Shown here: positions 626 to 31,114 of the stretch, one piece after another | How the letters are laid out: every line of letters starts with the position of its first letter | Numbering within the stretch: the stretch's first letter is position 1 | Assembly (NCBI RefSeq): GCF_008000775.2 | Contig: NZ_CP042905.2 | Coordinates: forward strand, 2,310,001 to 2,342,000 | Direction of reading: 5' to 3' | Origin: Promethearchaeum syntrophicum | GTDB taxonomy: Archaea > Asgardarchaeota > Lokiarchaeia > Sigyniarchaeales > Promethearchaeaceae | DNA length: 32,000 nucleotides | Notes under the pieces: generated by a model | Databases searched by the model: none | The model's input: the letters and a program-made list of their open reading frames with translations, nothing else | Told to the model about the DNA's origin: nothing | Translations under genes and position numbers: made by a program

Positions 626-3600
626 ATGCCAAAAAAGAAAGAAAAAAATTCTAATCAATTACCAAATGAAAAATCAGAGAAATGGAAGAATTTTAAAAAA
701 AATGCCGCTAAAGGGCTTAAAACCACATTAAAATGGGCATTAATGATAGGACCTGTATTTATCCCTGCAGCAACCCCTATAAGTGCATGTGTATCTTTTA
801 TTAGTCAATTTCTGTCAAAACAACTTCATATGGAAATTGATGAAAAACAAATTTCTGACAGATTATCCAAAGATACAAATTCCATCTCATCAAAATTGAT
901 TACTTCAGAGATAATTAATCACCTAAAAACTAAAAATAAATCCATAACTAACAAAAAATCTATTGAAATTGAGGATACTCTCATAAAACTCGAAAAATCC
1001 CTTGAATATATCCAAAAAAACCAAGAACGAGATCCTGATTCTTTTAAGGAAGTTTATCAGGGATTTTTAGAAGAGTTAAAAGAGGAAAATATTGAGAATT
1101 ATTCAAAACTACAAAAAGTCATTAGTAAGCAAAATGATTTCTTCGACTCCTTTAATCAAAATATCGTTGGATTTTTAGATGATATAAAACAACCCTTATG
1201 GAATTCAAAATTTCAAAATCAGAAGAAAATTCTGGAGTATACTGATGATGACTTACAATTTTTTTGCCAAAAACAACTCGAAATAGAAGAAATCTCATCT
1301 AGATATGATGAACCATATGATAAGGAGCGTTTTGTCCCAGTACAAAAATTAGAAGACGAGTTTGAACGTTTTTCTAAGAATTTGCAAAATAAAGTCAGTA
1401 AAGAGCGTATTTTCCTAATGTTAGGACATATGGGACTAGGAAAAACATGGAATGCTTCCTATATTGGATATAAATATAATGATCAAATTCCAACCTTTAT
1501 TTTTAATTTAGGAACCGCTTTTGAAACAAAATTTGAAAATTGTTTTGGAGATTTATTTGAAAAGAATCCTTTAGAGAACTATTTCAAACGTAAAACTTCA
1601 AACCAATATGGGGAAAAATTATTACTTATTTTTGATGGTTTTGATGAAATTCTACCAAATGAACGTGAAGATATTTTCAATTCAATTATTAATTTGGTTA
1701 AAACGAATCCCAACAAATTAATTATCTTCCTAACTTCACGTCTTGTAGACTGGATTCATACCCCAGTTGTATATTCAAAAGCACGGTCTTATCGAAATTA
1801 TATTTTTCAAAATCAACAATTTGATTCTTTTGAAGATATTTCTATACCGACTGGGGCAAGTTTTATTCTTTCTGATATAAATGATTCCACTTTCCTTAAA
1901 GAAATTACCTCAAAGTATGAAATTGATTATGATTTGATTCAAAACCCTAAGATAAAAATTCTTTTACATAAACCCTTTATTGTTAAACTAATTTCTTCGC
2001 ATAATCCCGACCTAGCCTATCAAGATTTTAATCCTCAAGATGATAAATGGTTCCAAATTTTTGCAGGTCCTAAAAAATATAACACAATTCTGCATCGAAT
2101 GGGAATCCTTGAAGCTGTCGAAAATACATTTCAAGATTTAATCTGTATGATTGGAGATCCATATACTCCAATTTTGGAACAAGAATTGAGGGAGTTTATT
2201 AAACCAAATCAAATCCATTGGGATATTATATTTTCTAGTGGAATTATTAAGAAACGCCAAAAAAACCTTCAAAATGAATTTTATTTCCCTGACGAATATC
2301 AAGATTTCATCGAAAGATATATAACGGAATTAAAAGGAATATTTCATGAAAATGTCATTTGTAAAGCGGATGTTTATGCGCTCGAATCAATTGAAAAAGA
2401 ATTATCAGGCTTCAAAATACAAAATTATACATTTGTCCCCTATAAAGATTTGAATGTTGGATACAAACTAAATAATAAAGGCAGGGTTATTGAAATGTAT
2501 TTAAAAAAACTACAAAATAAATTAAGTTATTTTCCCGAGGGTTTAACTAATCTTATAGAATTAAAAAGATTAAGTTTGGCTAACAATCAAATAGTTAATA
2601 TCCCTAAATCGATCGAAAAATTAAGATTTTTAGAATTTTTAGAGCTTGATAATAATTATATTACTCAAATCCCTCAAGAAATTCAAAAATTAAAAAACTT
2701 AAATCGCATCAGTATAAAAAATAACAATATTCAATTTTTCAAAGGGTGGTGGAATAACCTAAAAAATCTAAAATATATGAATATCAGCAATAATACTAGT
2801 CATATTGAAGGTCATACAATCAAATCAGTTCCGAAAAATTGCTCAATAATTGATGATGGATTTGAAGAAAATTCAGAAATTGTTCTAAAAGATGCTGCTA
2901 TTATTGATTATCTCAATAATTTAAAAAATGAGAATTTTGAAAAGCGCAGTGCAAACTTTAAAGATTTACATTTAATTTCACTGACTCTTAGAAATGCTGA
3001 ATACGATGAATTTAAGGGACTATTTTGGTCATCTGAGAATTTAGCAAGTTTAGAAATCCAAGGCAAATCAGTAAAATTTATGCATAATTCCTCAATTAAG
3101 AAACTTATTTTCAGACAAGATAAAACTCGAGAATTAATGATTGATGAATCGATTTCTCAATTGGAAAGCTTGGAATCGCTTCAAATTTATGGTTATAATA
3201 CCTTAGAACTTCCAGAATCTTTGAAAAAATGTGAAAAATTAAAACAAATTATTATTCAATGCCCAGAACTACAAGTATTGCCACAAATTTTGCTTGAAAT
3301 TAAAAATTTCCATAATATCTTTGTTTCCACTTCAAATATTCCGCTTAATGATATAGATCTTGGAGAATATCAAGATTCAGAGAAATCCCTGATAATTATT
3401 CAATTAAATAAGCAATATAATTTTGCAGACCTACTAATTCCAGAACACATTCACAATTTTTGCTTAATTTCCAGAATTAATATGCCAAAAAAAGTGATTG
3501 TTAAGGGAAAACTTAGAAAATTCTTCTATTTATCGATTAATAAAATTACTATGGATTTTTATAAAAATCTCTCGTTTGGGCATGATAAAAATATTGGAAA

Positions 3601-3877
3601 TTTTTACTTCATCGATTTACGAAGACGCAGTAATCAAATATTCGATTTAGAATGTGATTTCAATACCTTAGAATATTTTTTAATTTCACACCTTGGTCTA
3701 AATCATCTACCTGATTGGATGTTCTCTTCCCAAAATATAATTAAAGTTAAAATACATCACGGCGATATAGGGAAGTCCTATGATCAAATCTTTCAATCTG
3801 TTGAAAAAGGAGTTTTCCACTTCTTTGTTCAAAACGGATGCAGAATTCCGGAAAATATTGGTAGTTTTGTAAAATAG
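626..3877 (+). CDS. NLR-like STAND NTPase: N-terminal hydrophobic segment + coiled-coil region, NACHT NTPase, C-terminal leucine-rich repeats
   Basis: 1083-aa ORF. Hydrophobic stretch WALMIGPVFIPAATPISACVSFISQFL (aa 37-63). Walker A GHMGLGKT (nt 1424-1447). Walker B LLLIFDGFDE (nt 1619-1648), which has the NACHT-type hhhhDGxDE form. LIIFLTSR motif. LRRs such as LTNLIELKRLSLANNQIVNIPKSIEKLRFLEFLELDNNYITQIPQEIQKLKNL from about aa 635, with further degenerate LRRs toward the C-terminus. TATA-like aaatatataaat lies ~30 nt upstream of the ATG. Confidence 0.85.
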   Translation: MPKKKEKNSNQLPNEKSEKWKNFKKNAAKGLKTTLKWALMIGPVFIPAATPISACVSFISQFLSKQLHMEIDEKQISDRLSKDTNSISSKLITSEIINHLKTKNKSITNKKSIEIEDTLIKLEKSLEYIQKNQERDPDSFKEVYQGFLEELKEENIENYSKLQKVISKQNDFFDSFNQNIVGFLDDIKQPLWNSKFQNQKKILEYTDDDLQFFCQKQLEIEEISSRYDEPYDKERFVPVQKLEDEFERFSKNLQNKVSKERIFLMLGHMGLGKTWNASYIGYKYNDQIPTFIFNLGTAFETKFENCFGDLFEKNPLENYFKRKTSNQYGEKLLLIFDGFDEILPNEREDIFNSIINLVKTNPNKLIIFLTSRLVDWIHTPVVYSKARSYRNYIFQNQQFDSFEDISIPTGASFILSDINDSTFLKEITSKYEIDYDLIQNPKIKILLHKPFIVKLISSHNPDLAYQDFNPQDDKWFQIFAGPKKYNTILHRMGILEAVENTFQDLICMIGDPYTPILEQELREFIKPNQIHWDIIFSSGIIKKRQKNLQNEFYFPDEYQDFIERYITELKGIFHENVICKADVYALESIEKELSGFKIQNYTFVPYKDLNVGYKLNNKGRVIEMYLKKLQNKLSYFPEGLTNLIELKRLSLANNQIVNIPKSIEKLRFLEFLELDNNYITQIPQEIQKLKNLNRISIKNNNIQFFKGWWNNLKNLKYMNISNNTSHIEGHTIKSVPKNCSIIDDGFEENSEIVLKDAAIIDYLNNLKNENFEKRSANFKDLHLISLTLRNAEYDEFKGLFWSSENLASLEIQGKSVKFMHNSSIKKLIFRQDKTRELMIDESISQLESLESLQIYGYNTLELPESLKKCEKLKQIIIQCPELQVLPQILLEIKNFHNIFVSTSNIPLNDIDLGEYQDSEKSLIIIQLNKQYNFADLLIPEHIHNFCLISRINMPKKVIVKGKLRKFFYLSINKITMDFYKNLSFGHDKNIGNFYFIDLRRRSNQIFDLECDFNTLEYFLISHLGLNHLPDWMFSSQNIIKVKIHHGDIGKSYDQIFQSVEKGVFHFFVQNGCRIPENIGSFVK

Positions 3878-4199
3878 TACCCAGACGGAAAAACCAGAGC
3901 TGTAAGGCAACGCCAAACCAGAAGGCGATAAGTAAAGAAGAACTTAAAAAACAAATAACTAAAAATGTTGAAGAAAAAGTCAAAGTCGAATACAGAGAGA
4001 AATTTAAAAAATTCTAAATTTACTGCTTTGGATGCTCTTTTCTAGTTTTGATAATCAAAACACTCACAACTATCCCTGCAACTATCCAAAATTTCCATCC
4101 GAAAGAAATTGATTCGCTTTCTTCAGGATTCTCAAGTTCATCAGTGTCATAAATATTGTAAGTTTCATTGCTGTAGGTATTATTGATGTATTGTTATAT

Positions 4200-4412
4200 C
4201 TAAAAAGGAAGGGAAAGAAAATCACCAAAAAGTCTACTCATACCATCGGTACTTTCGGTTCCACTTTTTGATGTCAGGATTTCCATCCCGATAGTTTGCC
4301 CCAGCGGGGCGTTTCTCTGCCGGATTGTATCCTGATTAAAATTTTCTAATTTCTGATAGGCACCGAATTCAGATAAATCTTCTCCTGTACCAAGGTTTCT
4401 AATACGTAACAT
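4200..4412 (-). CDS. hypothetical small protein (doubtful, possibly a gene remnant)
   Basis: 70-aa ORF in a locally GC-richer stretch with no recognisable motif. The same frame continues past TAG and TAA stops into a hydrophobic C-terminal tail (see findings). Confidence 0.25.
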   Translation of the reverse strand: MLRIRNLGTGEDLSEFGAYQKLENFNQDTIRQRNAPLGQTIGMEILTSKSGTESTDGMSRLFGDFLSLPF

Positions 4413-4465
4413 TATTTTAGATAACCTTTAAGTACCAGTTGATATACAAGTTTATTTTTACCTAA

Positions 4466-4663
4466 TTACTGAAATTTCCAAATATCGATGTTTTTTTCTG
4501 AAAATCGAACTAATACTCCACAATTGGGACATACATCATAATACATTTTAGGTGAACCATAAGTGGTACGTTCAGATATATGATCCCATTCCTTGAATGT
4601 TGATACTTCATTACACACTTTACACTTCATTTTCTGATTTTTATCAATACCCATAACTAACAT
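4466..4663 (-). CDS. small zinc-ribbon protein
   Basis: 65-aa ORF with CxxC...CxxC (KCKVCNEV...VCPNCGV). Divergent from the TIR-LRR gene, 101 nt away. Confidence 0.5.
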   Translation of the reverse strand: MLVMGIDKNQKMKCKVCNEVSTFKEWDHISERTTYGSPKMYYDVCPNCGVLVRFSEKNIDIWKFQ

Positions 4664-4764: not shown

Positions 4765-5916
4765 ATGAATATTTTTATTAGTTATGCTAGCTCAGATTTA
4801 ACTTCTTTTCGCATCTCGGATATCGCCATTCGTATGGAAAATACTGTGGAAATTGAACGTGTGTTTTACTGGGACCGTGACTCTACCGCTCAGAAATCTA
4901 TCGTCAAATACATGGAAGAATCAATAACGGTTAGCGATGTGATCTTGATTGTCTGCACTGAAGCTTCCAATGAATCTGGACCAGTGCAACAAGAGACGGA
5001 TATGGCAGTATACCTAAATAAACGAATAGTACCAATATTTCAAGATATCAATGATGTTCGCCTAAGTTTACGTCCCAAACGAGGAGTAAAATATTATACT
5101 GATGACTTCGATTCCTTTTTCAAAGAACTTTTCATGGTGGTAACAGAATTATTGCCCGAAATCCCTCAAGAAGAAGAAATTGCCGAATTTCATGGAATTC
5201 CTTTAGCAATAGATGAATATCGGGCTATGAAAAGTTTGGAAGAACAACTAGGGATTATAATTCCACCTATTGAACCCTTTTATAAAAAAAAAAATGTTAG
5301 ATTTTTCACAGATATCGATTATTATCTGAATGAAGATAACTTGAAAAGAGGATTTGGATTCGCTGCAGAAAGAAATCACTTAATCCAACTAAAATTTAAC
5401 CGAGTTCCAGATGAAGATGAGGAAAATCCTCCTATAATAAAATTTTTTCCCGATGCATTAAGTCAGTTATTATATCTCAGAGCTTTGGATCTTAGCTATC
5501 AAAGTATCTCTATAATTCCTAATTTTATCGGAAAATTAACTCAATTGGAGTATTTTAATATAAGAAACAATAAAATCCAAAGATTTCCTAAGATTTTGAC
5601 TCAATTGAAAAACCTCAAATTTTTCTTATTCTCTAATGTTTCTATTGTTGAATATTTAAAAGATGAAATTTTTATAACAAGAAGTAATTATGAAATCTTA
5701 AATTCATTACTAGAAAATCTGTGTAAGTTAGACCTATATATCAATAATATTCCGTATTATTGGTCAAAACTTAAGGCAAAAAATCATTATGCTCATTGTG
5801 TTCATTGTGGTCATAAATTAAATTTCGAATTAAATGATCTTCCCACAAATAATGATAATTTGATGATATGTCCGAAATGTCAAAATGGAGAATTCTATAA
5901 CTTCAGTATAAAGTAA
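4765..5916 (+). CDS. TIR domain - LRR - C-terminal zinc-ribbon protein
   Basis: 383-aa ORF. N-terminus MNIFISYASSD...VFYWDRD...DVILIVCTEASNESGPVQQE has a TIR-like layout, with a candidate catalytic Glu77 at nt 4993-4995. LRRs LRALDLSYQSISIIPNFIGKLTQLEYFNIRNNKIQRFPKILTQLKNLKFF. C-terminal CVHCGH...ICPKCQ ribbon. Confidence 0.8.
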   Translation: MNIFISYASSDLTSFRISDIAIRMENTVEIERVFYWDRDSTAQKSIVKYMEESITVSDVILIVCTEASNESGPVQQETDMAVYLNKRIVPIFQDINDVRLSLRPKRGVKYYTDDFDSFFKELFMVVTELLPEIPQEEEIAEFHGIPLAIDEYRAMKSLEEQLGIIIPPIEPFYKKKNVRFFTDIDYYLNEDNLKRGFGFAAERNHLIQLKFNRVPDEDEENPPIIKFFPDALSQLLYLRALDLSYQSISIIPNFIGKLTQLEYFNIRNNKIQRFPKILTQLKNLKFFLFSNVSIVEYLKDEIFITRSNYEILNSLLENLCKLDLYINNIPYYWSKLKAKNHYAHCVHCGHKLNFELNDLPTNNDNLMICPKCQNGEFYNFSIK

Positions 5917-6334
5917 ACGATTAAATTTGGCTCTTTTTTTATATTTGACTCAATTGGAGTATTTATATTTAAGAAAAAACAAAATCAAGAGGTTTCCAGA
6001 AATACTATCTCAATTCAGAAATCTAAAAATATTCCTATTCTATGATAATTTGCTATCTGATAATCGCAGTCCCGGTTCCATGACACAAAGTAATTATAAT
6101 ACCTTAAAATTTTTACTCAATAACAAATGCAAGATAGATGATGGGTTTAAAACTATGGTTGCTACCGACTACAGAAAAGTCCATGCATTATATAAAACTA
6201 TCTATTGTATTTTCTGTGGACATGGTTTTAATATATACCAAGAAAATCTTCCAATTAATGCATCAAAGAAATGGATATTATGTCCGAATTGTAACAGCGA
6301 AAAACATTATGAATTCAAAAGTATAGTTGAAGAT
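5536..6334 (+). repeat. diverged tandem duplication of the LRR/Zn-ribbon coding segment (copy 1 ~5536-5913, copy 2 ~5945-6334)
   Basis: At the DNA level, 'actcaattggagtattt' opens both copies, followed by colinear codon-level similarity. The protein alignment is described above. Confidence 0.65.
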
Positions 6335-6337
6335 TGA
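5927..6337 (+). CDS. LRR + zinc-ribbon fragment: truncated tandem paralog of the 3' third of the TIR-LRR gene (possibly a pseudogene)
   Basis: 136-aa ORF with a TTG start, 10 nt after the upstream stop. LTQLEYLYLRKNKIKRFPEILSQFRNLKIFLF...CIFCGHGF...LCPNCN aligns colinearly with aa ~258-383 of the upstream protein. It has no TIR domain. Confidence 0.5.
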   Translation: MALFLYLTQLEYLYLRKNKIKRFPEILSQFRNLKIFLFYDNLLSDNRSPGSMTQSNYNTLKFLLNNKCKIDDGFKTMVATDYRKVHALYKTIYCIFCGHGFNIYQENLPINASKKWILCPNCNSEKHYEFKSIVED

Positions 6338-6566: not shown

Positions 6567-6827
6567 TCATTTGTAAACATTTCTTCGATGTCCAATCTTA
6601 ATAATATCAATAATTTTGATTTTTTTACTTATTGTGTATAAAATTCGATAATCTCCTGCTCTCCGTTTAAATACTTTATTAGGTAAATATTTTTTAACAT
6701 TTCCATCATTTTCATAAGGATTTAATTGAATTTCATCTAAAACACGAATAACAGCAGTTTGATTTATTTCATCCAAATTTGAAATGAAATTTTCCCATTT
6801 CCTTGGAATTCGAATTTTCCAAGACAT
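6567..6827 (-). CDS. RelE/ParE-family type II toxin (mRNA interferase-like)
   Basis: 86-aa ORF. RAGDYRILYTISKKIKIIDIIKIGHRRNVYK matches the family hallmark (GDYRI.Y...I..IGHR..VY). TATA-like tttatatataa sits ~24 nt upstream of the ATG on the minus strand (plus 6846-6856). Confidence 0.8.
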   Translation of the reverse strand: MSWKIRIPRKWENFISNLDEINQTAVIRVLDEIQLNPYENDGNVKKYLPNKVFKRRAGDYRILYTISKKIKIIDIIKIGHRRNVYK

Positions 6828-7700: not shown

Positions 7701-9146
7701 ATGGATAGCAATATAGACAATATACTAAGAAATTTTGTAATTAAATGGAGAGAATCTAAGGAAAAATCAAAAGTTTTTGATGAAGAAATCGGATTTATGA
7801 ATTTTCCCATTCCTACACAGTTCTTTGTATTTGAATTTAAACATAAAGCTATTCCATTTTATATTATTTTAAAAACTCATTTCTCCAATAAAAAAGATTT
7901 AATTATTCAAAAGAAAGGTAATTTCTCATTGAATAATAACCAGAAGTTGAAAAATTTTCAAGAGGAACTTAACTCTATTTTTCAAATATACTTTTCTAAA
8001 AATGAAAAGGACGAGATCCTTGATTTAATTGCCAGATTTTTGAATAACCAATTTGTGGGTAAGGAGATCGAAATATTGAAAGTTGGGTTTAGATCATCAA
8101 CAACACTAATTAACAATATAAGCATTGGGATTTATTTCGGAGATTGGAATAAATTAAATATTGAAGAAGATGTGAAGAAAAATATTAAAATTCAGAAGGA
8201 AATGGAGAATACATTCGTAAATTTCATGAAATCAAGATATGATAGAATTGATTGTATAGGTGCTTATTTATACCCTCCAATATGGATTGGAATATTACCT
8301 GTACTCTCATTTACAGAAAAAATGCAAGAGATTAAATTAAATGAGATTATTGAAAAGAAGATTGTAGAAGTTGACCATAGGAAAGTAATTTATACTTCTG
8401 ATGGTTATTTTGCAGTGGAAATAAAAAACTCAGTAGATGGATTCAATATCGAAGAAAAAGTGGAAAAATCACCAGAAGAGATATCCTCGATATTAGAAAT
8501 GATGAATTTATTAAATTCCATCTTATTACTGAAAGATTTTCCTATTAATGCTATTCAACGAAGTAATATTTCTTCTTTATGTTATTATATTCCTGAAACA
8601 AATTTTCTATATTTTAGTGTCAAATCAAATTCCGATGCTTCAGAATTATTGAATGATCGGCAGAAGCATATCACAAATGTGCATATAGAGAAAAAAATTA
8701 ATATACCCTTAGAAATATTCAAAGAAAGCATAAGAGAAGTAAAGATGTTAGCAGAAAATAACGAATTAAAAGATTTTAAAGAATTGATTATCACTGGATT
8801 AAATTCTTCAACGAATTATTCACATTTTGAATATCCTCAATCATTTATTCTTGGATGGACAATAATTGAGCAGTATATTAACAATTTGTATAATAAAAAA
8901 CTTAGTTTACAAAATATTCCAAAAGGAAAAAACCCTTCAGTCTATAATAAAATCAAAACATTGAAATCAGCATTTCAAATTAATAATAAGGATTATATAT
9001 TGCTAAATAAACTTCGGATTAAAAGAAATGATTATGTTCATGATTTAACGATGATTGATAAAAAAAATGCTCAAACTTGTTTAGATTTTAGTTTAAAATT
9101 ATTAAAAATATCGTATAATGAAAAAATATCTCATGTTTCTCAATAA
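7701..9146 (+). CDS. protein with a C-terminal HEPN-like domain (putative RNase); N-terminal ~380 aa uncharacterised
   Basis: 481-aa ORF. RNDYVH (aa 442-447, nt 9024-9041) fits the HEPN Rx4-6H motif and lies in a helical context (KLRIKRNDYVHDLTMIDKKNAQTCLDFSLKLLK). Confidence 0.65.
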   Translation: MDSNIDNILRNFVIKWRESKEKSKVFDEEIGFMNFPIPTQFFVFEFKHKAIPFYIILKTHFSNKKDLIIQKKGNFSLNNNQKLKNFQEELNSIFQIYFSKNEKDEILDLIARFLNNQFVGKEIEILKVGFRSSTTLINNISIGIYFGDWNKLNIEEDVKKNIKIQKEMENTFVNFMKSRYDRIDCIGAYLYPPIWIGILPVLSFTEKMQEIKLNEIIEKKIVEVDHRKVIYTSDGYFAVEIKNSVDGFNIEEKVEKSPEEISSILEMMNLLNSILLLKDFPINAIQRSNISSLCYYIPETNFLYFSVKSNSDASELLNDRQKHITNVHIEKKINIPLEIFKESIREVKMLAENNELKDFKELIITGLNSSTNYSHFEYPQSFILGWTIIEQYINNLYNKKLSLQNIPKGKNPSVYNKIKTLKSAFQINNKDYILLNKLRIKRNDYVHDLTMIDKKNAQTCLDFSLKLLKISYNEKISHVSQ

Positions 9147-9439: not shown

Positions 9440-12400
9440 ATGAAGCCTACAGAGGATGCAGATAAGTTCCTTCAAAAAATACAGCAAGAATATGGTTGTG
9501 ATAGGATTTCCCAAATCGAACATCTTATCAATTTTGATAGGGAAAAAGAAATATTACAAAGACTCTTGCTATTGCAGTGGTGGTTATTAGGTAAAGATGT
9601 TATTGAGTATGATGTTAGTACTATTGCTGATTTAGTTTCCGATTTAAATAATCCCGATTGTTTAGTTCATAAATTTGAATCATCCATCAAATCCTATTCA
9701 TATACGGATAAATTTAACATAATTTCCAATGGAAAAATAAAAGGACATACGAGTCTAAGAGATTTTCCTCGAAAATGGGCAGAAAATGAAGTTATTTTAA
9801 TAAAGAAAGGAAAAAATTATCATTTAACTGAATTAGGTAAGATTTGTGGTAATTACATTTTTTACAAATTATTAATTGCTGAGATATCTAAAAAAGACCT
9901 GATTAATTTTATAAGATTAGAAGGTAATTTACAATCTCAAATTTATGATCATCACGATAATGCTGATTTAATCCGAATGCAAATAATTCAAGATACTAAA
10001 ACGGATTCTAACAAATATGACTATACTCCTAAATTTTCAGAATTAATTACATTCCTTCAAAATTTTCCAGAACTCTATCCAAATGAATTATTAATGATAA
10101 AAAAGAGTTTAATAAATAAAATTTTTCACCGATATGCTGCCAATTTAAACATAAATCATACTCACTTGCTTCAGAATGGAGAAAAAATTACAAATAGCAG
10201 TATTAAAAGAGAAAAAATCAATTGGATTTATAATCTTGAATTAAGATCAAAAGAGAATCAAACATTTGATTTACCAATTACTAATAGAGTAAAAATTAAA
10301 GCGAATCCATTTAAAGTTCGATTCCAGGTACTAAAATCACCAGGAGGATATGGGAAAACAATATTTCTCTATCAATTAGCCTTAAATAATCTATTGGAAA
10401 TACATAATACCAACAGTGCAATTACTGAAATCTCCAAAAAGAAACAATCATGGATTCCAATAATTATAGTATGCAGAAATTTGCATTTATTAAAATCAAA
10501 GGATAAATATACCTTATTTTATAATGCGGAAAAAATTGTTGACTTCAGAACTTTTTTTAAAATCAATACCCCTCCTAAGTTTGAAGAACTTATTGTAACA
10601 CTTCTTTATTCATTTTTAAAAAAATCTTCCTTTACAACTAAAGCAACTTGCCAATTTTTCTTAAAGAGTATTATTAATCATAATATATTGCTAATCTTTG
10701 ATGGATGGGATGAAATTGAAGATAATCTGATGAAGAAATGTATAATGAGTTTAATTGAAGAACTATTTATGAAAATGACGAATATTGTGTGTTTAGTAGC
10801 AACAAGATATCTTGATCAAATTTTAGAACAAAAATTAGAATTAAAGCGAAATAAAAGCATAAAAAAGAAATATGATCCAGTTCATTTAAGTTTATCATCC
10901 CTAACAGATTCCCAAATATCAAACTATCTATCAGATTTTTTCCAAACTGATCAGCAAACAATTAATAAATTTATTCAAGAAACAAACTCTCAATATACTC
11001 CTTTAGAACTATATTTCTTAACACTTTTTCCTAAAATTGATTTACCTAAGTATAAATTTAAGCTTTATGAGAGAAGAATTTTATTTGGAGTCTTATCTGA
11101 ATTCTATCCAATAGCTAAATTACAGAAAATTGATTCAATTACAGAAATATTTTATTTATTGGATAAAAATGTTCAACAATCAGATTCTGATAATTTTTTA
11201 CTTAACAACAACCAAGATAAAACCAGAAATAAAGACTCTATATTAAAAAATGATATATCTACTAATGATCACGGAATTAAAATTCGAGATTTGATTTATG
11301 GTCGTCTTTTCTCACTTATAACATCAAGTTCTAGGAATTATTCCCTTTATTCAATAATGCCATATATATGCTACTCGTCATTGTTTCCACTAAAATTTCC
11401 CCCTCTTGAATATGCTCAATGTATCAGAGTAAATCCAGTACTAAAACGCTTTATTGCTCCAAAAGATGAGCCAACTAATAATTCTTTAATTGCAATTTTA
11501 CTTGATTGGCATTTTATGGATTATTTCTTATCGTATAGGATTTTTCAAGCATTTTGTAATGATGAAACAATTCAACCAATTCCCTATAAATCGGTTGAAA
11601 ATTTTCTTAAAGAACGATTTGAAAACCTAGATGAAAGTAAGGATTTAATCTTTCAGAAATTTCACCAATATGGTATTCAAAATTTTGATGATTTTTTAAG
11701 TATGATTTATTTAGAAGCCAAAATTGAATTCCCTCCTCAAAAATTTCTTAGAGATGATTTTGATCCTGGTGATGGTGGATTTTCTGATCCTGGTATGAAA
11801 ATTACAATGAGTTTGAATATGCCCATTTATGGAAAAGAATTGATTGAAGCATTTAGATTTGAATTTAATAAAGCAAGAAAGAAGAAAGAATATCATTTAG
11901 TTCCTCCAATTCTTCAATTATTCAACATTTTTTATAAAGAACGCCCGAGTATTCAACGTCAAATAAAAATGCCAACTGATAGTGACCCAGAATTTTATGA
12001 TCCAGAAGAGAATCATTCTCCTTTAGATTACTTTGATATTGTTTCTTCTCTTTTCTTTAAAGATCAATATTCTCCTGAAAACATAGAAATTATCAGATAT
12101 GAAGAAAAAGAAAATGAGTATTATTTACAATCTACTGGATTTTATAATGAATCAAGTCTTTCGTTAGAAAAACACGAAGGAAAATTCTGGAAAAGGAGTG
12201 ACATTAGGGAAATTCTGGAAAAGATGCTCTTAATCTCTAATGAGCACCTCATACCGTGGTTAGAGCAGGTTTATTTAAAACTTCCCGATGAATTAAAACC
12301 AAAATTAGATTCTAATCAACTTAAAAACATTCTTTACTCCTCAAAAAATCAAGTTATACAACGATCATCTTTTAATTTACTTCTTCGAATAAATATTGAG

Positions 12401-15358
12401 CAGATATTAGAAAACTACCAAGACTTTATTCAATTAAATAACAAAGAAATCATAGATGATTTTCTTGAATACTATTTACCTCTAATTTCAGATAAAAAAG
12501 TCTCTAATAGAGATTTTAGTGGATTTTTACGAATTTTAGATAGTTCAGTAGTTGATAATGCAGGGAAAACTATTCTTTACAATCACTTTATCCAAGTTGG
12601 TTTAGATAACAAACAACGAGAAGCTATGTTCAGTAGATTCAAGAGAAATTATTATAAAAAACCAGAGAACTGGGATGAGCTAATTATACTACAAATTCTT
12701 TTACTAATTAATCTTGAAGAAGAAGAATTAAATGATGATTTGTATAATTCTCCTAGCTATTATCTAATTAAGGATAGATTAAACAAATTTATTTTACATG
12801 CAATTCAGAAAAAATATGGCTTTTATTTTGACTTTTTAACATCTTTAGAAATTTCCACTGATTTAATCATCTCAAAAATATCTGCTTATTCTTTCAATTT
12901 AGTTGAAAAGCTTCAAATATTATTGTATAAACCAGAATTGTCATTTGAATATCAAATGGAAAATTTGAAAAGAGAAATCGCAGTGCATATCAGACCTAGA
13001 AGATATAAAGAATGTGATACAAGATCAGGATTGGATCTTATAAAACAAATCCAACAGAAAATTCAAGATTCAAAATCAAATTTTTATTCAAAGGAAAGAT
13101 TTTTAGAAGAATTAGAAGAATTAAATGAAAAATTGCTTTTTTTAGATGATATCGATAGATTTTATGTTTCAGATTTAATGGAATGTTATCTTGAATGGAA
13201 ATTATCCTTATATCCTCCCAATCATAAGGATTATTTATCTATTGCTGTTCTAATTTTTGATTTTTTTAAAAAACTAAAGATCCAATCAGAACAAGCAGAA
13301 TATAAATCTCTTTGGAATAAATCAAGGTCGAAAGAATATACTTATAACCGAATTTTTAAAATAATCAATGAACATTTCTATTTAATTGCAATGGATACCA
13401 GAATACAATGGATTCGTTTCTATATTGCGCAAAATTTTGAATTTAACACATATCAAATTTTACTTTATAATATTGATAAAAACTTAGTAGAAAATCTACA
13501 TTCAATTATTTGGGAAAAAGTTAAACAAAATCGAGATTTTGAAAATTTAAACTTTAATTATTTAAGAAAAAGAAGTGTATATCTGCATTCTTCCTATCCT
13601 TTTTCCAATTCGAATCAGGAAGAAGATCAAAAAACTAATGAAATTCTCCAAACATTACCTTTTTCTTTGGAGGGATTACTTCCATTTAAAGAATTTAATA
13701 AAATTATCTTGGAAATACTTCATTATGAAGAAAATATGGAATTTTTTGATTCAAATCCATTTGATCCAGATGACTCATACAAGATACATCCATTTCTTAC
13801 AATTATCAATAATTATTTCTCTCTATTAGCCCAATATAGAAGAGTTGAGGAATATATTGAAATATTTGAATTATATTGGAAGAAATATGCCTTCCATTCA
13901 AGCATGAAAAATCAGAGACATATTACATATTACATAATATATGCATTTTCTGAAGAAATAATGCACAAAATATATCCCTGTTTAAATCCATCTCCATATA
14001 AAATTGCATTTTTACTTTGTTATAAGCAGAAAAGTAAATATCGGACTGAATTACCATATCTCGAAAAAGATTCGTTTTATAAGAAGCAAGATATCAATAT
14101 TTACAAAGAAATTAGTCAATTTTCAAAGGAAATTATATATGATTCTATTCAAGAATTTCATAAGACAGGAAAAAATGCTTTTCTGTATAATGAATTGTTC
14201 CTATTTACAGATCTTAAACACCATTCGATGCAAGACATATGGAATTTCATTGATCAACAATTAACTGGACATAAATTTGGCTATTATTCAGAATCACCAC
14301 ATTATTATTTAATAGATTATGTGACTGTTGGTCAATTGAAACCGGAATTGTTAAAGAGATGGAATATATTTCAACATCTAGCTCGAATTCAGAAAAAGAA
14401 TCGTTTATCGTTGTCGGAGTCAATTTTTAGAGAAAATTTATCTGAATATTCAAAACTAATTGAATTCATTGAAGATTTTGCTCATTATCAATTTTCAGAG
14501 CCATACATTCCTGTATTAGATAGTGAGAAAATTATGAATTTTAATGAGATTCAACAGCAAATAAAGCAAAATTTGGATCATAAAAAACAAGAAATTGGTT
14601 ATATTAAGTTAGATCCAGAAAGTACCTTCTTTCATTATTTTAAAGAATCAGAATACAATATATTAAAACAATTGGAATCAGAGATAACATCAAGAGATGG
14701 TAAAAAATTATATGATCCTTATGCGGATGATAACGATGATAATGAAACTACTGAACATGATCAAATTTATGGAGTTAACAGACAAAAAGATGAAAAATAC
14801 CAAATTTGGAGAGCTTTAACTGAAAAAGAACGAAATAAAGTTAAAATGGCAAGAGAGAAGGTATTTGAAAATGAAAAAGAATTTTGCAATATGTTCTATA
14901 GAGAATTAAACGAGAAACAACGAAAAATTTTCTTTTCTCACCATAGCACTGTTCTTGAGTGGTCTCCAACACCAATAATGTTTTTTCCTACGTTAAAATG
15001 GATTCTAAAACAAATGGTAGATAATCCAATTTATCAAAAGTTTGATATTGAATATATGATGGAAGCTCAAGCACATTTTAAGAATTCAGCAAATGAACTC
15101 AAAATCTTAGATGAAATACTAAACTATGGATTTAAGTATAACAAGTTAAAAGAATGGTATAAGCGATTAATTTCTTCAAAAGAGTTGGAACAAGAGATAT
15201 TCTTTATTTTTGAGAAGTATATAACCAAATATATTTATTCCTTCAATGAATTGGATTTGTTTCCCAAAAATTTAAGAAAACTATGTATTACTCAGTTACT
15301 AAGTCGTTTTTCACTTCAAATTGCCCGAAAGCTATATGAAAATAATAAGTATAAGTAA
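9440..15358 (+). CDS. giant NACHT-type STAND NTPase with a ~290-aa unknown N-terminal region and a ~1400-aa helical C-terminal region
   Basis: 1972-aa ORF. Walker A SPGGYGKT (nt 10337-10360). Walker B ILLIFDGWDE (nt 10685-10714), NACHT-type DGxDE. The VCLVATR motif follows. The remainder is helical with no recognisable repeat family. Acidic patch DPYADDNDDNETTEHD. Confidence 0.85.
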   Translation: MKPTEDADKFLQKIQQEYGCDRISQIEHLINFDREKEILQRLLLLQWWLLGKDVIEYDVSTIADLVSDLNNPDCLVHKFESSIKSYSYTDKFNIISNGKIKGHTSLRDFPRKWAENEVILIKKGKNYHLTELGKICGNYIFYKLLIAEISKKDLINFIRLEGNLQSQIYDHHDNADLIRMQIIQDTKTDSNKYDYTPKFSELITFLQNFPELYPNELLMIKKSLINKIFHRYAANLNINHTHLLQNGEKITNSSIKREKINWIYNLELRSKENQTFDLPITNRVKIKANPFKVRFQVLKSPGGYGKTIFLYQLALNNLLEIHNTNSAITEISKKKQSWIPIIIVCRNLHLLKSKDKYTLFYNAEKIVDFRTFFKINTPPKFEELIVTLLYSFLKKSSFTTKATCQFFLKSIINHNILLIFDGWDEIEDNLMKKCIMSLIEELFMKMTNIVCLVATRYLDQILEQKLELKRNKSIKKKYDPVHLSLSSLTDSQISNYLSDFFQTDQQTINKFIQETNSQYTPLELYFLTLFPKIDLPKYKFKLYERRILFGVLSEFYPIAKLQKIDSITEIFYLLDKNVQQSDSDNFLLNNNQDKTRNKDSILKNDISTNDHGIKIRDLIYGRLFSLITSSSRNYSLYSIMPYICYSSLFPLKFPPLEYAQCIRVNPVLKRFIAPKDEPTNNSLIAILLDWHFMDYFLSYRIFQAFCNDETIQPIPYKSVENFLKERFENLDESKDLIFQKFHQYGIQNFDDFLSMIYLEAKIEFPPQKFLRDDFDPGDGGFSDPGMKITMSLNMPIYGKELIEAFRFEFNKARKKKEYHLVPPILQLFNIFYKERPSIQRQIKMPTDSDPEFYDPEENHSPLDYFDIVSSLFFKDQYSPENIEIIRYEEKENEYYLQSTGFYNESSLSLEKHEGKFWKRSDIREILEKMLLISNEHLIPWLEQVYLKLPDELKPKLDSNQLKNILYSSKNQVIQRSSFNLLLRINIEQILENYQDFIQLNNKEIIDDFLEYYLPLISDKKVSNRDFSGFLRILDSSVVDNAGKTILYNHFIQVGLDNKQREAMFSRFKRNYYKKPENWDELIILQILLLINLEEEELNDDLYNSPSYYLIKDRLNKFILHAIQKKYGFYFDFLTSLEISTDLIISKISAYSFNLVEKLQILLYKPELSFEYQMENLKREIAVHIRPRRYKECDTRSGLDLIKQIQQKIQDSKSNFYSKERFLEELEELNEKLLFLDDIDRFYVSDLMECYLEWKLSLYPPNHKDYLSIAVLIFDFFKKLKIQSEQAEYKSLWNKSRSKEYTYNRIFKIINEHFYLIAMDTRIQWIRFYIAQNFEFNTYQILLYNIDKNLVENLHSIIWEKVKQNRDFENLNFNYLRKRSVYLHSSYPFSNSNQEEDQKTNEILQTLPFSLEGLLPFKEFNKIILEILHYEENMEFFDSNPFDPDDSYKIHPFLTIINNYFSLLAQYRRVEEYIEIFELYWKKYAFHSSMKNQRHITYYIIYAFSEEIMHKIYPCLNPSPYKIAFLLCYKQKSKYRTELPYLEKDSFYKKQDINIYKEISQFSKEIIYDSIQEFHKTGKNAFLYNELFLFTDLKHHSMQDIWNFIDQQLTGHKFGYYSESPHYYLIDYVTVGQLKPELLKRWNIFQHLARIQKKNRLSLSESIFRENLSEYSKLIEFIEDFAHYQFSEPYIPVLDSEKIMNFNEIQQQIKQNLDHKKQEIGYIKLDPESTFFHYFKESEYNILKQLESEITSRDGKKLYDPYADDNDDNETTEHDQIYGVNRQKDEKYQIWRALTEKERNKVKMAREKVFENEKEFCNMFYRELNEKQRKIFFSHHSTVLEWSPTPIMFFPTLKWILKQMVDNPIYQKFDIEYMMEAQAHFKNSANELKILDEILNYGFKYNKLKEWYKRLISSKELEQEIFFIFEKYITKYIYSFNELDLFPKNLRKLCITQLLSRFSLQIARKLYENNKYK

Positions 15359-15960: not shown

Positions 15961-17058
15961 ATGAAAGATAAATCACGAATTACTGTAAGAGTTCCTTCTT
16001 GGGTTAAGGAAGAAATGGATAAGAAAAATGAAATAAACTGGTCTCAGATTATCAGGAATATTCTAATCGAATATATAAAAATTGAAGATTTTCCTTTACA
16101 TTTCCGAAGGATCGTTAAAAAACATAAATTATCAGAGAATTGGGATTTATTAAAAGCCTTTTACTTATTTTCAGCAAATGATGACAAAAAATCGTTGAGA
16201 TCCAACTTATACACAGTATTCGATGAAAGGGCTGATGAAATCGAAAATGATCTAAAAAAAACATTAATTGATCTCGGTATTCAATATAAGGTCGAAATTC
16301 CCAAAGAACAGAACATTAAAGAGAATATTTTAAATATTTTATTCGAAGAAGGAGTAATTTCCGATTTAGAGGGAGAAATAGATAGATTGTTTGAGCATGT
16401 TGAAATCAAATCTAAGATAAATGAAGCTATTTGGTATTTAGGGCTCTACCTAAAAGATGAATCCGACTTTGAACCTAATAGTGTCTCATTTGCAGGCGAT
16501 GGTTTAAACATCTACTTTTCGCATTTATTCGACGATCCTGAGAAAATTATCAATGAACTTATAAAAATTGGAGTTTTAAGCCAATCCAATTACAGAAGTA
16601 ATGCATACTCATACACAATATACAGATTGTTAGATCAATCAATAAAATTAGTTAAAGAAATACAACTTAATCCAGAGAAATATTCACTCACCCATCTTGA
16701 TTTATCACAGAATATTGAAGATCTTCTTCATCATGAGAGAAATCGATTTTTAATAAAATCATTAGATCAAGGACTTGATGTCCATAATAGGTATAATAAT
16801 ACAATTCAAGATTTTGAAGAGAAATTCGGTGAGGGGTCATTTAATGATACATTAGATGAACTGGTCAAGAAAGGTATCATTATATGTAATTACTCTCCCA
16901 GTCGTAAACGATCCGGAAAGAGAGGTGCAATGCGATCAAGTTTATATTATAAGTTATCCAAAACGGGTGAAGAGAAACTTAAAGAATATATTTTAAACCG
17001 ACATCTACAGAATAAAGAAGGAAAAGTGCAAAGTATTATTGAATTGTATGAACTTTAA
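15961..17058 (+). CDS. ribbon-helix-helix (CopG-like) DNA-binding protein with C-terminal winged-helix-like segments
   Basis: 365-aa ORF. N-terminus RITVRVPSWVKEEMDKKNEINWSQIIRNILIEYI has an RHH pattern. LDELVKKGIIICNY...LYYKLSKTGEEKL is wHTH-like. Confidence 0.65.
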   Translation: MKDKSRITVRVPSWVKEEMDKKNEINWSQIIRNILIEYIKIEDFPLHFRRIVKKHKLSENWDLLKAFYLFSANDDKKSLRSNLYTVFDERADEIENDLKKTLIDLGIQYKVEIPKEQNIKENILNILFEEGVISDLEGEIDRLFEHVEIKSKINEAIWYLGLYLKDESDFEPNSVSFAGDGLNIYFSHLFDDPEKIINELIKIGVLSQSNYRSNAYSYTIYRLLDQSIKLVKEIQLNPEKYSLTHLDLSQNIEDLLHHERNRFLIKSLDQGLDVHNRYNNTIQDFEEKFGEGSFNDTLDELVKKGIIICNYSPSRKRSGKRGAMRSSLYYKLSKTGEEKLKEYILNRHLQNKEGKVQSIIELYEL

Positions 17059-25489: not shown

Positions 25490-25984
25490 TTATTTATATA
25501 AATTAGAATTTATTAGATTTCTTTTTGTATTTCCAAAAATTCGGACAATTGAATCCATCCATCCCATTGTAATACATTCTTTAATTGAAATTGTTTTAAA
25601 TTCCTCTTTATTTTTTTTATTTATCTTTGTTGGCATTCTATCTATTTCATGAACTGATACCCAATACCATGTATAATACCCGCTTTCTTTAGTAGTTATT
25701 GCAAGCCATACTTCTAAATCATATGATTTAGCAAATTTTAATAATTTCTGAAATTCGTTGATTCCAATAGTAAAATTTCCATATTTCGTATAAATTCGTT
25801 TTAATTTAACATCAACATAAATATCTCTCTGATAAGGAAGCTGAATAACAAAATCTGGGCGTTTAATTATCATAGAAAAGGATTCTGCAAACGTTTCTGG
25901 ACTTTGATCAATAAAATACCATGAAGTTTTTTGATGATTTAACCAATTTTTAAATTTTTCCTCGCTAAGAGTCAAGTTTTGCAT
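25490..25984 (-). CDS. PD-(D/E)xK-like nuclease fold protein
   Basis: 164-aa ORF. KRPDFVIQLPYQRDIYVDVKLK fits a PD...(D/E)xK core. The start is 4 nt after the upstream stop. GGAGG (minus strand, plus 25996-26000) lies 11 nt upstream of the ATG. Confidence 0.55.
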   Translation of the reverse strand: MQNLTLSEEKFKNWLNHQKTSWYFIDQSPETFAESFSMIIKRPDFVIQLPYQRDIYVDVKLKRIYTKYGNFTIGINEFQKLLKFAKSYDLEVWLAITTKESGYYTWYWVSVHEIDRMPTKINKKNKEEFKTISIKECITMGWMDSIVRIFGNTKRNLINSNLYK

Positions 25985-30645: not shown

Positions 30646-31114
30646 GTTTTTAAACCACTATAATGAAGTTTTTTGTATAAATCAGAAGTAATTAATGAAT
30701 CTTCTTTTTTAATACTTTAATTATCTCTTTGTTATCAATCTTTTCCAAAAAATCTTAAGTTTCATGATGTGAACTTTGGTTATCTATTAACTCGAGGTTA
30801 TACCAAAGTAAACTATATTACTCAGTTAAAGAATGAAAACATTGAAATAGATAAATTAGAACTTTCAACTTTGTAATGACTAAAACCTAATCGCTAACCA
30901 AATCATTATGTTATGACTCTCGAAAACCAAAATGATTGGAATTAAACCTATAGATCAGATTAATAATTAGATTCTAATATTCAAAAGTAAGTAATTAATT
31001 TATAATGACATTCTTTGAAGTTTTGACTGTAGTCGGGTTTTTATTGATTTAATTGGATTTATTTATTTAATTATCACTATTTTAAGAAAAACAAAGCAAA
31101 TTGAAGATAGAATC

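Follow-up and report, generated by a model that had tools for sequence, protein, structure and literature searches.

A 383-residue TIR–LRR–zinc-ribbon protein of Promethearchaeum syntrophicum, a candidate single-chain sensor and NADase effector

SEFIR, DSR1 and DSR2 are single proteins that carry an N-terminal NADase and a C-terminal sensor, contain no NTPase, and deplete NAD+ upon phage detection (10.1101/2024.02.11.579819). The protein of Promethearchaeum syntrophicum described here resembles them in its single polypeptide, N-terminal effector, C-terminal sensor and lack of an NTPase, whereas its putative sensor is an LRR solenoid with a zinc ribbon, its host is an archaeon, and the DSR proteins use a SIR2 rather than a TIR domain. 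A SEFIR system is defined by an N-terminal SEFIR match that is stronger than the TIR match (10.1101/2022.05.11.491447). For the present protein, Pfam SEFIR scores 18.1 bits against a cut-off of 23 and TIR_2 scores 40 bits, with no PADLOC match; the best PDB sequence-profile match of its TIR subfamily is a bacterial SEFIR domain (5y8e, E=2e-5). With AbTir, TcpB/BtpA, PdTIR and SARM1 it shares the TIR fold and a catalytic-type glutamate in the alpha-C region, and a dependence on TIR self-association, as in the AbTir-type TIR_2 NADases and SARM1, may be expected here. It differs from the AbTir-type NADases and SARM1 in that the tryptophan of the WxxxE motif is replaced by Pro73, and in that their partner domains are coiled-coil or ARM/SAM and not LRRs.

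Plant TNLs and the Avs, bNACHT and TIR-NLR proteins also join a TIR effector to a repeat-type, fast-evolving sensor, TNLs specifically combining TIR and LRRs, but the oligomerising NB-ARC/NACHT NTPase of these proteins is missing here, and 383 residues amount to a third to a tenth of the size of TNL, STAND and NLR-like proteins. Animal Toll-like receptors have the same pair of LRRs and TIR, possibly also the approximation of TIRs by ligand, but the domain order is reversed, the archaeal protein has no signal peptide or membrane segment, and its TIR is of the prokaryotic TIR_2 type. Since the family to which it belongs contains both domain orders, the Toll-like resemblance would most simply reflect convergent domain shuffling, and the 'domain-inverted Toll-like' layout suggested in the initial annotation of this DNA carries no special meaning. 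TIR and LRRs in one protein without an NB domain were noted earlier in two bacteria, Chloroherpeton thalassium and Rhodopirellula baltica (PMC7145615), which are likened to the present protein by this mention of their architecture alone and for which no zinc ribbon is reported. Judged by sequence, the TIR→LRR arrangement without an NTPase is already known as a kind, and the zinc-ribbon tail is what sets the small orthologue group described here apart.

Domain architecture and the candidate active site

The gene lies at 4765..5916 on the plus strand (ATG to TAA) of the window, by which we mean the whole 32,000-nucleotide stretch of DNA analysed. The encoded 383-aa protein is identical to P0001 and is annotated by NCBI as 'TIR domain-containing protein'. 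A stop-free run of equal length has a chance of about 2e-15 at the local base composition, and gene calling on an independent assembly also recovered the ORF; it is a real gene for a small cytosolic protein. No transmembrane segment was found in the protein (maximum 19-residue hydropathy 1.3) and no extension precedes TIR strand A, in line with its earlier description as soluble. The search for an NTPase module, which the initial annotation had also judged missing, returned neither a Walker A motif (P-loop) nor an NTPase Pfam match. The motifs quoted in that annotation are in place (FISYASSD at residues 4-11, DVILIVCTE at 58-66 and PVQQE at 73-77), and its order of TIR, linker, LRRs and ribbon is confirmed. 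The computed pI is acidic for the TIR (4.5) and basic for the LRRs (9.1) and the ribbon (8.4). The AlphaFold2 model of the protein has a pTM of 0.60, with an uncertain placement of the TIR relative to the LRRs. PADLOC, NCBIfam and PHROGs yielded no informative family for the protein and generic LRR matches only.

The TIR domain comprises residues 1-127 (4765..5145, plus strand), as delimited by Pfam TIR_2, the AlphaFold2 model and Foldseek. Of the two Pfam profiles proposed for checking it, PF13676 (TIR_2) matched residues 3-112 well above threshold (E=6.5e-10, 40 bits versus a cut-off of 28), whereas the eukaryote-centred PF01582 gave no match in the Pfam scan of the 383-aa protein. The domain was modelled with pLDDT above 90 across the TIR fold and 79-96 over residues 1-127, and Foldseek aligned this flavodoxin-like fold at probability 1.0 with the solved TIRs of MAL, Hydra TRR-2, MyD88, SPARTA TIR-APAZ, AbTir, SARM1 and RPS4, and likewise with a bacterial SEFIR domain. 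The TM-scores were about 0.71-0.78 for MAL, TRR-2 and MyD88, and 0.72 for AbTir. The alignments to SPARTA chains extend over 144-174 columns, about the length of the TIR domain, and no Piwi/Argonaute Pfam match occurs in any window ORF scanned.

Glu77 (GAG codon, 4993-4995, plus strand), the candidate catalytic residue singled out in the initial annotation, keeps this status: in the profile alignment it coincides with the Glu of VHKEL ('WVHKEL') in SARM1 and TIR-1, with family position 73 opposite the Trp. We take its position to be that of SARM1 E642 and AbTir E208. Glu77 is invariant in an alignment of 23 TIR-LRR proteins, and across the subfamily 63 of 66 TIR domains have Glu at this position, domains of tandem arrays among them. 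Pro73 (4981-4983, plus strand) stands four residues before it; at this family position Pro (30), Ala (12) and Ser (11) account for 53 of the 66 domains, and an aromatic residue (Phe) occurs in two of the 66. The corresponding residue of the SARM1 WxxxE motif is W638 (Manik et al., 10.1101/2022.05.07.491051), and in SARM1 and AbTir the WxxxE Trp takes part in binding NAD+ (10.1101/2022.05.07.491051). An aromatic residue four positions before the Glu is reported for all TIRs that make cyclic ADPR, and ADPR remained the sole product when position -4 was mutated in ADPR-only enzymes (Manik et al., 10.1101/2022.05.07.491051). The TIR of the 383-aa protein is probably NAD+-cleaving, and the prediction favours plain NAD+ hydrolysis over cyclic-ADPR signalling because a Pro, not an aromatic residue, occupies position -4; since the WxxxE Trp is missing, NADase activity could be weak or different. 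More than 70% of all TIRs, the non-enzymatic TLR1/2/6/10 included, have a conserved Glu, which by itself is insufficient evidence of TIR activity (PMC7075850).

The segment between the TIR and the repeats, a linker in the initial annotation, is no spacer: it caps the LRR solenoid at its N-terminal end and is conserved (residues 139-232; 5179..5460, plus strand), as identified by a conserved family motif and the secondary structure of the model. It consists in order of a beta-hairpin, a helix, a low-confidence loop (170-190), a second beta-hairpin and a first partial repeat, and its motif F-x-G…E…L…LE…IP…GF…H-x-x-x-L is conserved across the TIR-LRR family. By eye, the same motif is apparently present in other LRR proteins of the window. 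Three canonical 23-residue LRRs follow (residues about 233-304; 5461..5676, plus strand), assigned from matches to LRR_8, LRR_14 and LRR_4, from PDB LRR matches and from the repeat register. The presence of LRRs, as first annotated, is borne out by the LRR_8 profile (28 bits versus a cut-off of 27), with LRR_14 below its cut-off (33 versus 40), and phmmer against the PDB matched LRR proteins of Leptospira as well as SHOC2, with values from 1e-25 to 1e-19. The model strands at 240-242, 263-265 and 286-288 show the 23-residue spacing, and the solenoid has three to four LRRs in total. A C-terminal cap (residues 305-325, NYEILNSLLENLCKLDL; 5677..5739, plus strand), assigned from family alignments and the model, closes the solenoid with a helix (306-317) and a strand (321-323), and is the counterpart of the '…L.K.GC.I' ending of most family members.

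The tail (residues 341-383; 5785..5913, plus strand) was delimited by invariant columns in homologues and by model strands, and its two knuckles, C345-x2-C348-G-H and C369-P-x-C372, hold four of the six Cys of the protein. All five homologues compared keep CxxCGH…CP, the invariant columns being C, C, G, H, N, C, P and F; four of them also have the fourth Cys, which the orthologue P0002 lacks. Beta strands appear in the models of both the full-length protein and the tail alone, with pLDDT values of 61-82 for the tail and 62.5 when it was modelled alone. No curated zinc-ribbon family covers the tail, the best Pfam match being DZR at a non-significant E=0.11, and Foldseek on the isolated tail found nothing significant (best E=0.18), its neighbours at E above 0.1 being just generic zinc-ribbon modules such as those of TFIIE, the Sir2 Zn module, rubredoxin and ribosomal proteins. 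From the Cys pattern alone, we infer that the tail is a putative zinc-binding ribbon.

The TIR-LRR family and the turnover of its C-terminal module

An exhaustive representative search identified, among clusters at 50% identity carrying the same TIR, at least 21 with the order TIR→LRR and 5 with the order LRR→TIR, and no recognised NTPase was found in any of them. No PADLOC defence model matches the protein, whose domain order the initial annotation did not recognise from named defence systems. Its architecture is shared by many relatives: in the Promethearchaeota TIR subfamily no other arrangement is as common as TIR→LRR without an NTPase, and the zinc-ribbon tail is specific to the small orthologue group of the 383-aa protein, which is among the smallest subfamily members. 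The subfamily is a large paralogous expansion in which the TIR is combined with LRRs (in either order), TM segments, TPRs, coiled coils, zinc ribbons or NUDIX, and which also holds TIR-only proteins and tandem TIRs; four of its loci come from one MAG. One fusion (P0094) joins the TIR to a NUDIX domain scoring above its cut-off, and another (P0105) to an isochorismatase-like domain just under it (24.7 bits versus 27). These fusions point to a link between the subfamily and NAD+ breakdown products. All named family members are from Promethearchaeota or Lokiarchaeota, the viral contig collection yielded no relative, and the TIR–LRR family has so far been seen only in Promethearchaeota, to which it is apparently restricted. 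A word-indexed homologue search with the TIR alone gave only three close fragments. The locus scan used an 8-sequence TIR alignment, in effect a single peptide pattern of low recall, and retrieved 7 genome and 4 metagenome loci, from which neighbourhood statistics are anecdotal.

Conservation is unevenly distributed along the protein. Orthologues share 85-91% identity in the TIR and 75-82% over the N-terminal two thirds, and 39-51% in the last ~126 residues save for one pair at 67%; the homology of one orthologue ends after residue 172. Just downstream of the gene lies an orphan C-terminal module (5927..6337, plus strand), recognised by its sequence identity to the main protein, which comprises the last two LRRs, the C-cap and the zinc ribbon. 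It is 38% identical to residues 258-380 (E=4e-23), retains all zinc-ribbon invariants in an intact open frame (chance 6e-6), and has neither a TIR nor an ATG start close to its 5' end. Inside it, the NCBI annotation places a hypothetical protein of 95 aa, DSAG12_02642 (P0191). The homology between the gene and the orphan begins abruptly at a 102-nt direct repeat (left copy 5536..5637, plus strand; partner 5945-6046, 409 nt on) with the common 17-mer ACTCAATTGGAGTATTT. The module was not found at the five orthologous loci examined (L001-L003, L005 and L007), and a profile search with the C-terminal module returned only the orphan's own annotation and no copy attached to other effectors. The rapid C-terminal divergence together with the orphan copy just downstream points to a fast-evolving module, in which the sensor may have been replaced repeatedly on a constant effector.

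Genomic setting and possible modes of action

The 32-kb window looks like a defence island. It encodes ParE, a DUF4145 protein, two NACHT-like giant proteins, a type IIG R-M-like enzyme, an IS110 transposase and GmrSD/HEC-05 (1e-223), as well as a bona fide ThsB-like gene at 31440-31919, and contains no tRNA gene or obvious integration boundary. One orthologue is flanked by an HpaII R-M system and a transposase, and another lies 2 kb from a RES-domain protein; against the defence reading, the relatives at L008, L009 and L011 are situated amid membrane and housekeeping genes and not defence genes. The gene has no conserved neighbour, and gene order is not kept across the few relatives sampled. 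The 65-aa zinc-ribbon ORF (4466-4663, minus strand), once proposed as a partner, is called as a gene and is real, but it has no counterpart beside any orthologue; neither this ORF nor a 70-aa upstream ORF gave a tblastn match in any related locus, and the small upstream gene in L005 is unrelated. The 1083-aa NACHT-like P-loop NTPase–LRR protein (626-3877, plus strand), encoded 0.9 kb upstream of the TIR gene, was also considered as a conserved partner and set aside.

The best explanation, to which we give about an even chance, is a cytosolic single-chain protein of the prokaryotic antiviral-defence kind, sensor and NADase effector in one. The LRR/zinc-ribbon module would be the specificity-determining sensor, and its ligand most likely a viral or mobile-element protein, or possibly nucleic acid bound through the basic ribbon. 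Ligand binding would gather several copies of the protein, so that their TIRs could build an active site from two subunits, as other TIR enzymes do; the assembled TIRs would then hydrolyse NAD+ to ADP-ribose and nicotinamide, and the infected cell would stop growing. Since none of its neighbours is conserved, the protein may act alone. The one-protein logic of sensor and effector first put forward in the initial annotation agrees with the variable C-terminus, with the location in a defence island and with the missing conserved partner.

It is unlikely that the TIR is instead non-enzymatic and serves for assembly only, as in animal TLR, MAL and MyD88, with the receptor nucleating hetero-oligomers in which other TIR proteins of the same genome (TIR-only, TM-TIR, TIR-NUDIX and tandem TIRs) are the responders. 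Such a role is consistent with the retention of the Glu in non-enzymatic TLRs (PMC7075850), with the absence of the NAD-stacking Trp, with filament-forming MAL and MyD88 as the best Foldseek TIR matches, and with a large paralogous expansion that has many partner domains and four loci in one MAG. However, animal and bacterial TIRs are not told apart by their Foldseek scores (0.71-0.78 versus 0.72 for AbTir), 63 of 66 domains retain the Glu even in tandem arrays, and the NUDIX and isochorismatase-like fusions point to NAD+ chemistry. To our knowledge, the prokaryotic TIRs characterised in defence have proved to be enzymes. A signal synthase like Thoeris ThsB, itself a small TIR protein in which sensing is presumably linked to NAD+ chemistry, would sense infection and produce an NAD+-derived messenger for an effector encoded elsewhere in the genome. 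Several variable ThsB sensors are possible per Thoeris locus, the same island holds the ThsB-like gene, and the protein and its relatives give weak ThsB_TIR Pfam matches; but the score stays below threshold (18.1 versus 21.2) with no match to the PADLOC ThsB model, no ThsA-type effector (SIR2, Macro or SLOG) occurs in the window or beside any orthologue, and the aromatic residue of cyclic product formation is replaced by Pro, Ala or Ser, which leaves this reading quite improbable.

We consider it very improbable that the upstream NTPase–LRR protein senses, oligomerises and recruits the TIR-LRR protein as the effector of a two-part, NLR-like system. The proximity of the two genes on the same strand suggests it, as does the neighbour at L001, an operon of a P-loop protein (weak AAA_16, nSTAND5) and a separate LRR protein; the NTPases of the window and of L001 share no significant similarity, however (E=0.52), and the orientation differs, being the same strand with two opposite-strand ORFs between in the window and divergent in L001. 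Moreover, no P-loop–LRR neighbour is present in L004, L005, L007 and L008, the similarity between the LRRs of the two window proteins is ordinary (36-40%), and LRR proteins are abundant in these genomes, which makes chance adjacency plausible. There is also a small chance that the protein has no defence role and instead regulates the normal physiology of this syntrophic archaeon through NAD+ or protein interactions, for instance in signalling or in cell-surface or cytoskeletal processes. Several relatives lie outside defence contexts, and repeat domains such as LRRs are both common and promiscuous in archaea, bacteria and eukaryotes (10.1101/2020.10.19.343400), but the island-like window, the rapid C-terminal turnover with its orphan module, the unconserved gene order among the few relatives sampled, and the orthologues beside R-M systems, transposases and a RES-domain toxin argue against such a role.

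Implications for Asgard immunity

The 383-aa protein adds a candidate defence family to the Asgard archaea, in whose defence survey TIR-LRR proteins are not mentioned (PMC11291487). The Asgard defence repertoire has been catalogued with bacterial models, and such models miss this protein, as seen from the lack of a PADLOC match. TIR and LRR are building blocks common to animal and plant innate immune receptors, and the Promethearchaeota are among the closest prokaryotic relatives of eukaryotes; because the TIR is of the prokaryotic type, the protein by itself has no bearing on the ancestry of the eukaryotic receptors.

We know of no prokaryotic protein for which the switching-on of a TIR by a repeat sensor without an NTPase motor has been worked out. 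With 383 residues and three to four LRRs, the protein is a tractable in-vitro model for LRR-driven TIR activation. A further-reaching reading, which we consider distinctly unlikely, is that the Promethearchaeota have evolved a large immune-receptor family of their own, built from LRRs and TIRs and independent of an NTPase. In it, ligand would drive TIR assembly, and specificity would be renewed as recombination replaces the C-terminal sensor cassette; the intact orphan module, with its 17-nt junction in common with the expressed gene, would be a sensor that was displaced or is kept on stand-by, or else a small regulator of the full-length protein. If this is true, a TLR-like logic would be contained in a 45-kDa cytosolic protein, with a short LRR/zinc-ribbon module driving TIR assembly directly.

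Domain architecture of the window protein

The open reading frame at 4765-5916 (+) runs from an ATG start to a TAA stop and encodes a product of 383 aa; at the 27% G+C content of the window, the chance of so long an open frame is about 2e-15. NCBI holds the identical protein as 'TIR domain-containing protein [Promethearchaeum syntrophicum]' (P0001), and the same gene is called in unchanged order in an independent assembly (locus L006). The product belongs to both the TIR_2 and the LRR family. The TIR N-terminus read in the initial annotation was confirmed by Pfam, with TIR_2 matching residues 3-112 (E=6.5e-10, 40 bits against a cut-off of 28), and the LRRs were located at residues ~228-291, where LRR_8 lies barely over its cut-off and LRR_14 and LRR_4 barely under theirs.

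AlphaFold2, given 23 family members as input, produced a model (mean pLDDT 84.5) that comprises the TIR domain (residues 1-127), a unit of beta-hairpin, helix and beta-hairpin (139-212), three solenoid strands (240-242, 263-265, 286-288) spaced by exactly 23 residues, a capping helix (306-317), and short strands around both Cys pairs. Foldseek matched the N-terminal domain to the solved TIRs of MAL, Hydra TRR-2, MyD88, SPARTA TIR-APAZ, AbTir, SARM1 and RPS4, as well as to a bacterial SEFIR domain. The middle part matches LRRC8, Leptospira LIC proteins and SHOC2, and LRR matches were found at the sequence level too. What had been taken for a linker caps the solenoid at its N-terminal side, and its motif F-x-G…E…L…LE…IP…GF…H…L is kept across the family and was seen by eye in the other LRR proteins of the window as well. 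The CxxC...CPxC ribbon was upheld, its knuckles C345-x2-C348 and C369-x2-C372 using four of the six cysteines; the Pfam zinc-ribbon matches are weak. The protein lacks a Walker A motif, in agreement with the proposed absence of an NTPase module. Nor is any segment hydrophobic, the 19-residue hydropathy peaking at 1.3. It is a cytosolic TIR–LRR–zinc-ribbon protein.

The TIR subfamily and its predicted chemistry

A word-indexed search returned three full-length orthologues (P0002-P0004, ~64% identity, all from Promethearchaeota MAGs), a truncated orthologue (P0005) and a longer TIR–LRR relative (P0006). An exhaustive search covered 50%-identity representatives, and its best 150 matches together with the other relatives gathered formed the family census. 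At least 54 proteins carry this TIR subfamily: the TIR precedes the LRRs in 21 of 54 and follows them in 5 of 54, and the remaining members consist of a TIR alone or combine it with TM segments, TPR, coiled coils, zinc ribbons, further TIRs or the enzyme domains described below. No NTPase domain was found among the 54 members, 11 by Pfam scan and the others by eye. All source-named members come from Lokiarchaeota or Promethearchaeota, and four family loci come from one MAG. Members with the TIR first mostly run to 5-14 repeats closed by a '…L.K.GC.I' cap. In the window protein the repeats number only three to four, LLENLCKLDL serves as the corresponding cap, and an extra zinc ribbon follows. 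Because the TIR–LRR order is frequent without an NTPase and the ribbon tail is common only to the orthologues of the window protein and the downstream fragment, the layout is considered a family trait and the tail a peculiarity of this gene.

Zinc ribbons also recur around the TIR family, fused or adjacent (L008, P0082, P0136, P0181). At the L008 locus, the TIR–LRR protein P0049 is directly preceded by a coiled-coil protein of 177 aa (5435-5968 (+)) whose C-terminus is a double CxxC zinc ribbon. Another locus, L009, encodes a coiled-coil–TIR protein of 200 aa (1911-2513 (+)) and a capped LRR protein of 264 aa (3621-4415 (+)) 1.1 kb apart, possibly the TIR–LRR architecture divided between two genes.

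F4, S6, Y7, E77 and P90 are invariant in 23 aligned TIR–LRR proteins. The proposal of Glu77 as the candidate catalytic residue was borne out when the subfamily profile was scored on all relatives gathered, with Glu kept in 63 of the 66 TIR domains of 54 proteins. When this profile was compared with PDB sequences, the 'WVHKEL' stretch of the SARM1/TIR-1 TIR placed its Glu opposite Glu77 and its Trp opposite position 73. The window protein therefore has a catalytic-type Glu. At position 73 the window protein has Pro; of the 66 family domains, 53 have P, A or S there and only two an aromatic residue. According to Manik et al. (10.1101/2022.05.07.491051), cyclic ADPR isomers come only from TIRs with an aromatic residue at the equivalent position, and ADPR-only enzymes mutated there still gave ADPR as sole product. 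Plain NAD+ hydrolysis is thus favored on sequence grounds if the TIR is an enzyme.

Two metagenomic members carry the same TIR subfamily fused to other enzymes, a NUDIX hydrolase domain in P0094 (above cut-off) and an isochorismatase/nicotinamidase-like domain in P0105 (just below cut-off). These fusions are circumstantially consistent with a chemistry yielding ADPR and nicotinamide, which are substrates for phage NAD+ rebuilding (NARP1). It is tempting to speculate that the fused enzymes could destroy the ADPR and nicotinamide needed by phages.

A variable C-terminus and its downstream copy

Among the four full-length orthologues compared, identity is 85-91% in the TIR and 75-82% over the N-terminal two thirds. 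It drops to 39-51% in the final ~126 residues, which comprise two LRRs, the C-cap and the ribbon; one pair reaches 67% there. In the truncated orthologue P0005 (L007 2650-3309 (+)), 83% identity over residues 1-172 gives way to unrelated sequence and a stop at 219 aa; its half with the LRRs and zinc ribbon was thus lost or replaced. The C-terminus is therefore variable, and a constant effector whose C-terminus changes fast and can be exchanged is the pattern expected of an arms-race receptor.

An ORF at 5927-6337 (+), starting ten bases past the stop codon of the main gene, copies exactly its C-terminal module (38% identity, E=4e-23) and keeps all invariant ribbon residues. At the DNA level the two share a 17-mer with which their homology abruptly sets in; it lies at 5536 in the main gene and, 409 nt further on, at 5945 in the copy. 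This orphan module is open for 136 codons (chance probability 6e-6) and lacks an ATG close to its 5' end; its start differs by gene caller, NCBI giving 95 aa and another caller 127 aa. Such a fragment is absent at the orthologous loci L001-L003, L005 and L007. The module may be a cassette that was displaced or is kept in reserve, or else it may act as a small regulator.

Genomic setting and proposed mode of action

The window reads as a defense island, a reading supported by a GmrSD-type restriction enzyme (19786-21507 (-), PADLOC HEC-05, E=1e-223), a type IIG R-M-like methyltransferase fusion of 964 aa (27751-30645 (-)) and, between them, an IS110 transposase (23734-25035 (-)). Besides the NTPase–LRR protein and the ThsB-like gene treated below, it also encodes a ParE-family toxin (6567-6827 (-), E=8e-7; antitoxin not identified), a protein of 481 aa whose C-terminal domain is DUF4145 (7701-9146 (+)), an uncharacterized STAND-like protein of 1972 aa (9440-15358 (+)) with weak NACHT (E=7e-4) and nSTAND_NTPase5 matches, an Smr protein and a further LRR protein. 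Five ORFs of 164-420 aa (15961-17058, 17404-18666 and 18653-19606 (+); 25490-25984 and 25989-27032 (-)) have no Pfam, PADLOC or PHROGs family, except for a weakly VapB-like N-terminus at 15961-17058 and a marginal Cas8f match (PADLOC, E=9e-4) at 18653-19606.

The window protein most likely acts alone as sensor and effector in one. The LRR and zinc-ribbon module would bind a foreign protein or nucleic acid, its engagement would gather the TIR domains into a two-subunit active site, as described for SARM1 and AbTir (10.1101/2022.05.07.491051), and the assembled TIRs would hydrolyze NAD+ to ADPR and nicotinamide. SEFIR, DSR1 and DSR2 are precedents for joining an NADase at the N-terminus to a sensor at the C-terminus without an NTPase (10.1101/2024.02.11.579819). 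In one rival reading, the window protein supplies the effector for a two-part system whose other half is the neighboring NTPase–LRR protein of 1083 aa (626-3877 (+)), itself an Asgard example of an NLR-like protein. That neighbor has a Walker A (GHMGLGKTW) and a Walker B (LLLIFDGFDE) motif, weak Pfam matches to NACHT, NPHP3_N and AAA, and LRRs above cut-off, and no recognized domain was found in its N-terminal ~230 residues. Among the relatives' loci examined, the main gene has no conserved neighbor and hence no conserved partner. The 65-aa zinc-ribbon gene once suggested for this role has no homologue near any relative. The upstream NTPase–LRR protein was also tried as a conserved neighbor and rejected, having no significant similarity to the P-loop protein beside the L001 orthologue.

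The other rivals concern the TIR and its purpose. A non-enzymatic scaffold could feed into other TIR paralogues; the conserved Glu has to be read with the caveat that it occurs in >70% of all TIRs, non-enzymatic TLRs included (PMC7075850). A ThsB-like signal synthase is another rival, set against the rarely aromatic position 73. A ThsB-like TIR gene itself (159 aa, PADLOC ThsB 8e-53, PDC-M50B 4e-59) lies at the window edge (31440-31919 (-)), with no ThsA-type gene visible in 30646-31440, the upstream side falling outside the window. For a role outside defense, the loci speak both ways. One orthologue adjoins an HpaII R-M system and a transposase, and another, P0003 at L001, lies near a RES-domain protein, which is encoded 2 kb downstream (13149-14003 (-)). 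Also at L001, an operon divergent from the P0003 gene (5592-9785 (-)) encodes 187-aa, 829-aa P-loop (weak AAA_16 and nSTAND5 matches) and 358-aa LRR proteins. The contexts of more distant relatives are mixed, part defense-like and part not, and no relatives were found on viral contigs.

The domain order had not been recognized from named defense systems, and no PADLOC model matches the window protein. It lacks the defining features of Thoeris, SEFIR, SPARTA, NLR/STAND and TLR, and single-chain NADase-sensor defense proteins are nearest in predicted function. TIR–LRR proteins without an NB domain are mentioned for two bacteria (PMC7145615). We found no description of the family in the Asgard defense survey (PMC11291487), the Asgard genome comparison (10.1101/2020.10.19.343400), or through full-text searches on TIR with Lokiarchaeota or Prometheoarchaeum. 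The prokaryotic TIR_2 character of the TIR speaks against an ancestor of Toll-like receptors, as does the presence of the two domain orders in the family. The protein would gain in interest if NTPase-independent activation from LRR to TIR, or cassette exchange, were demonstrated.
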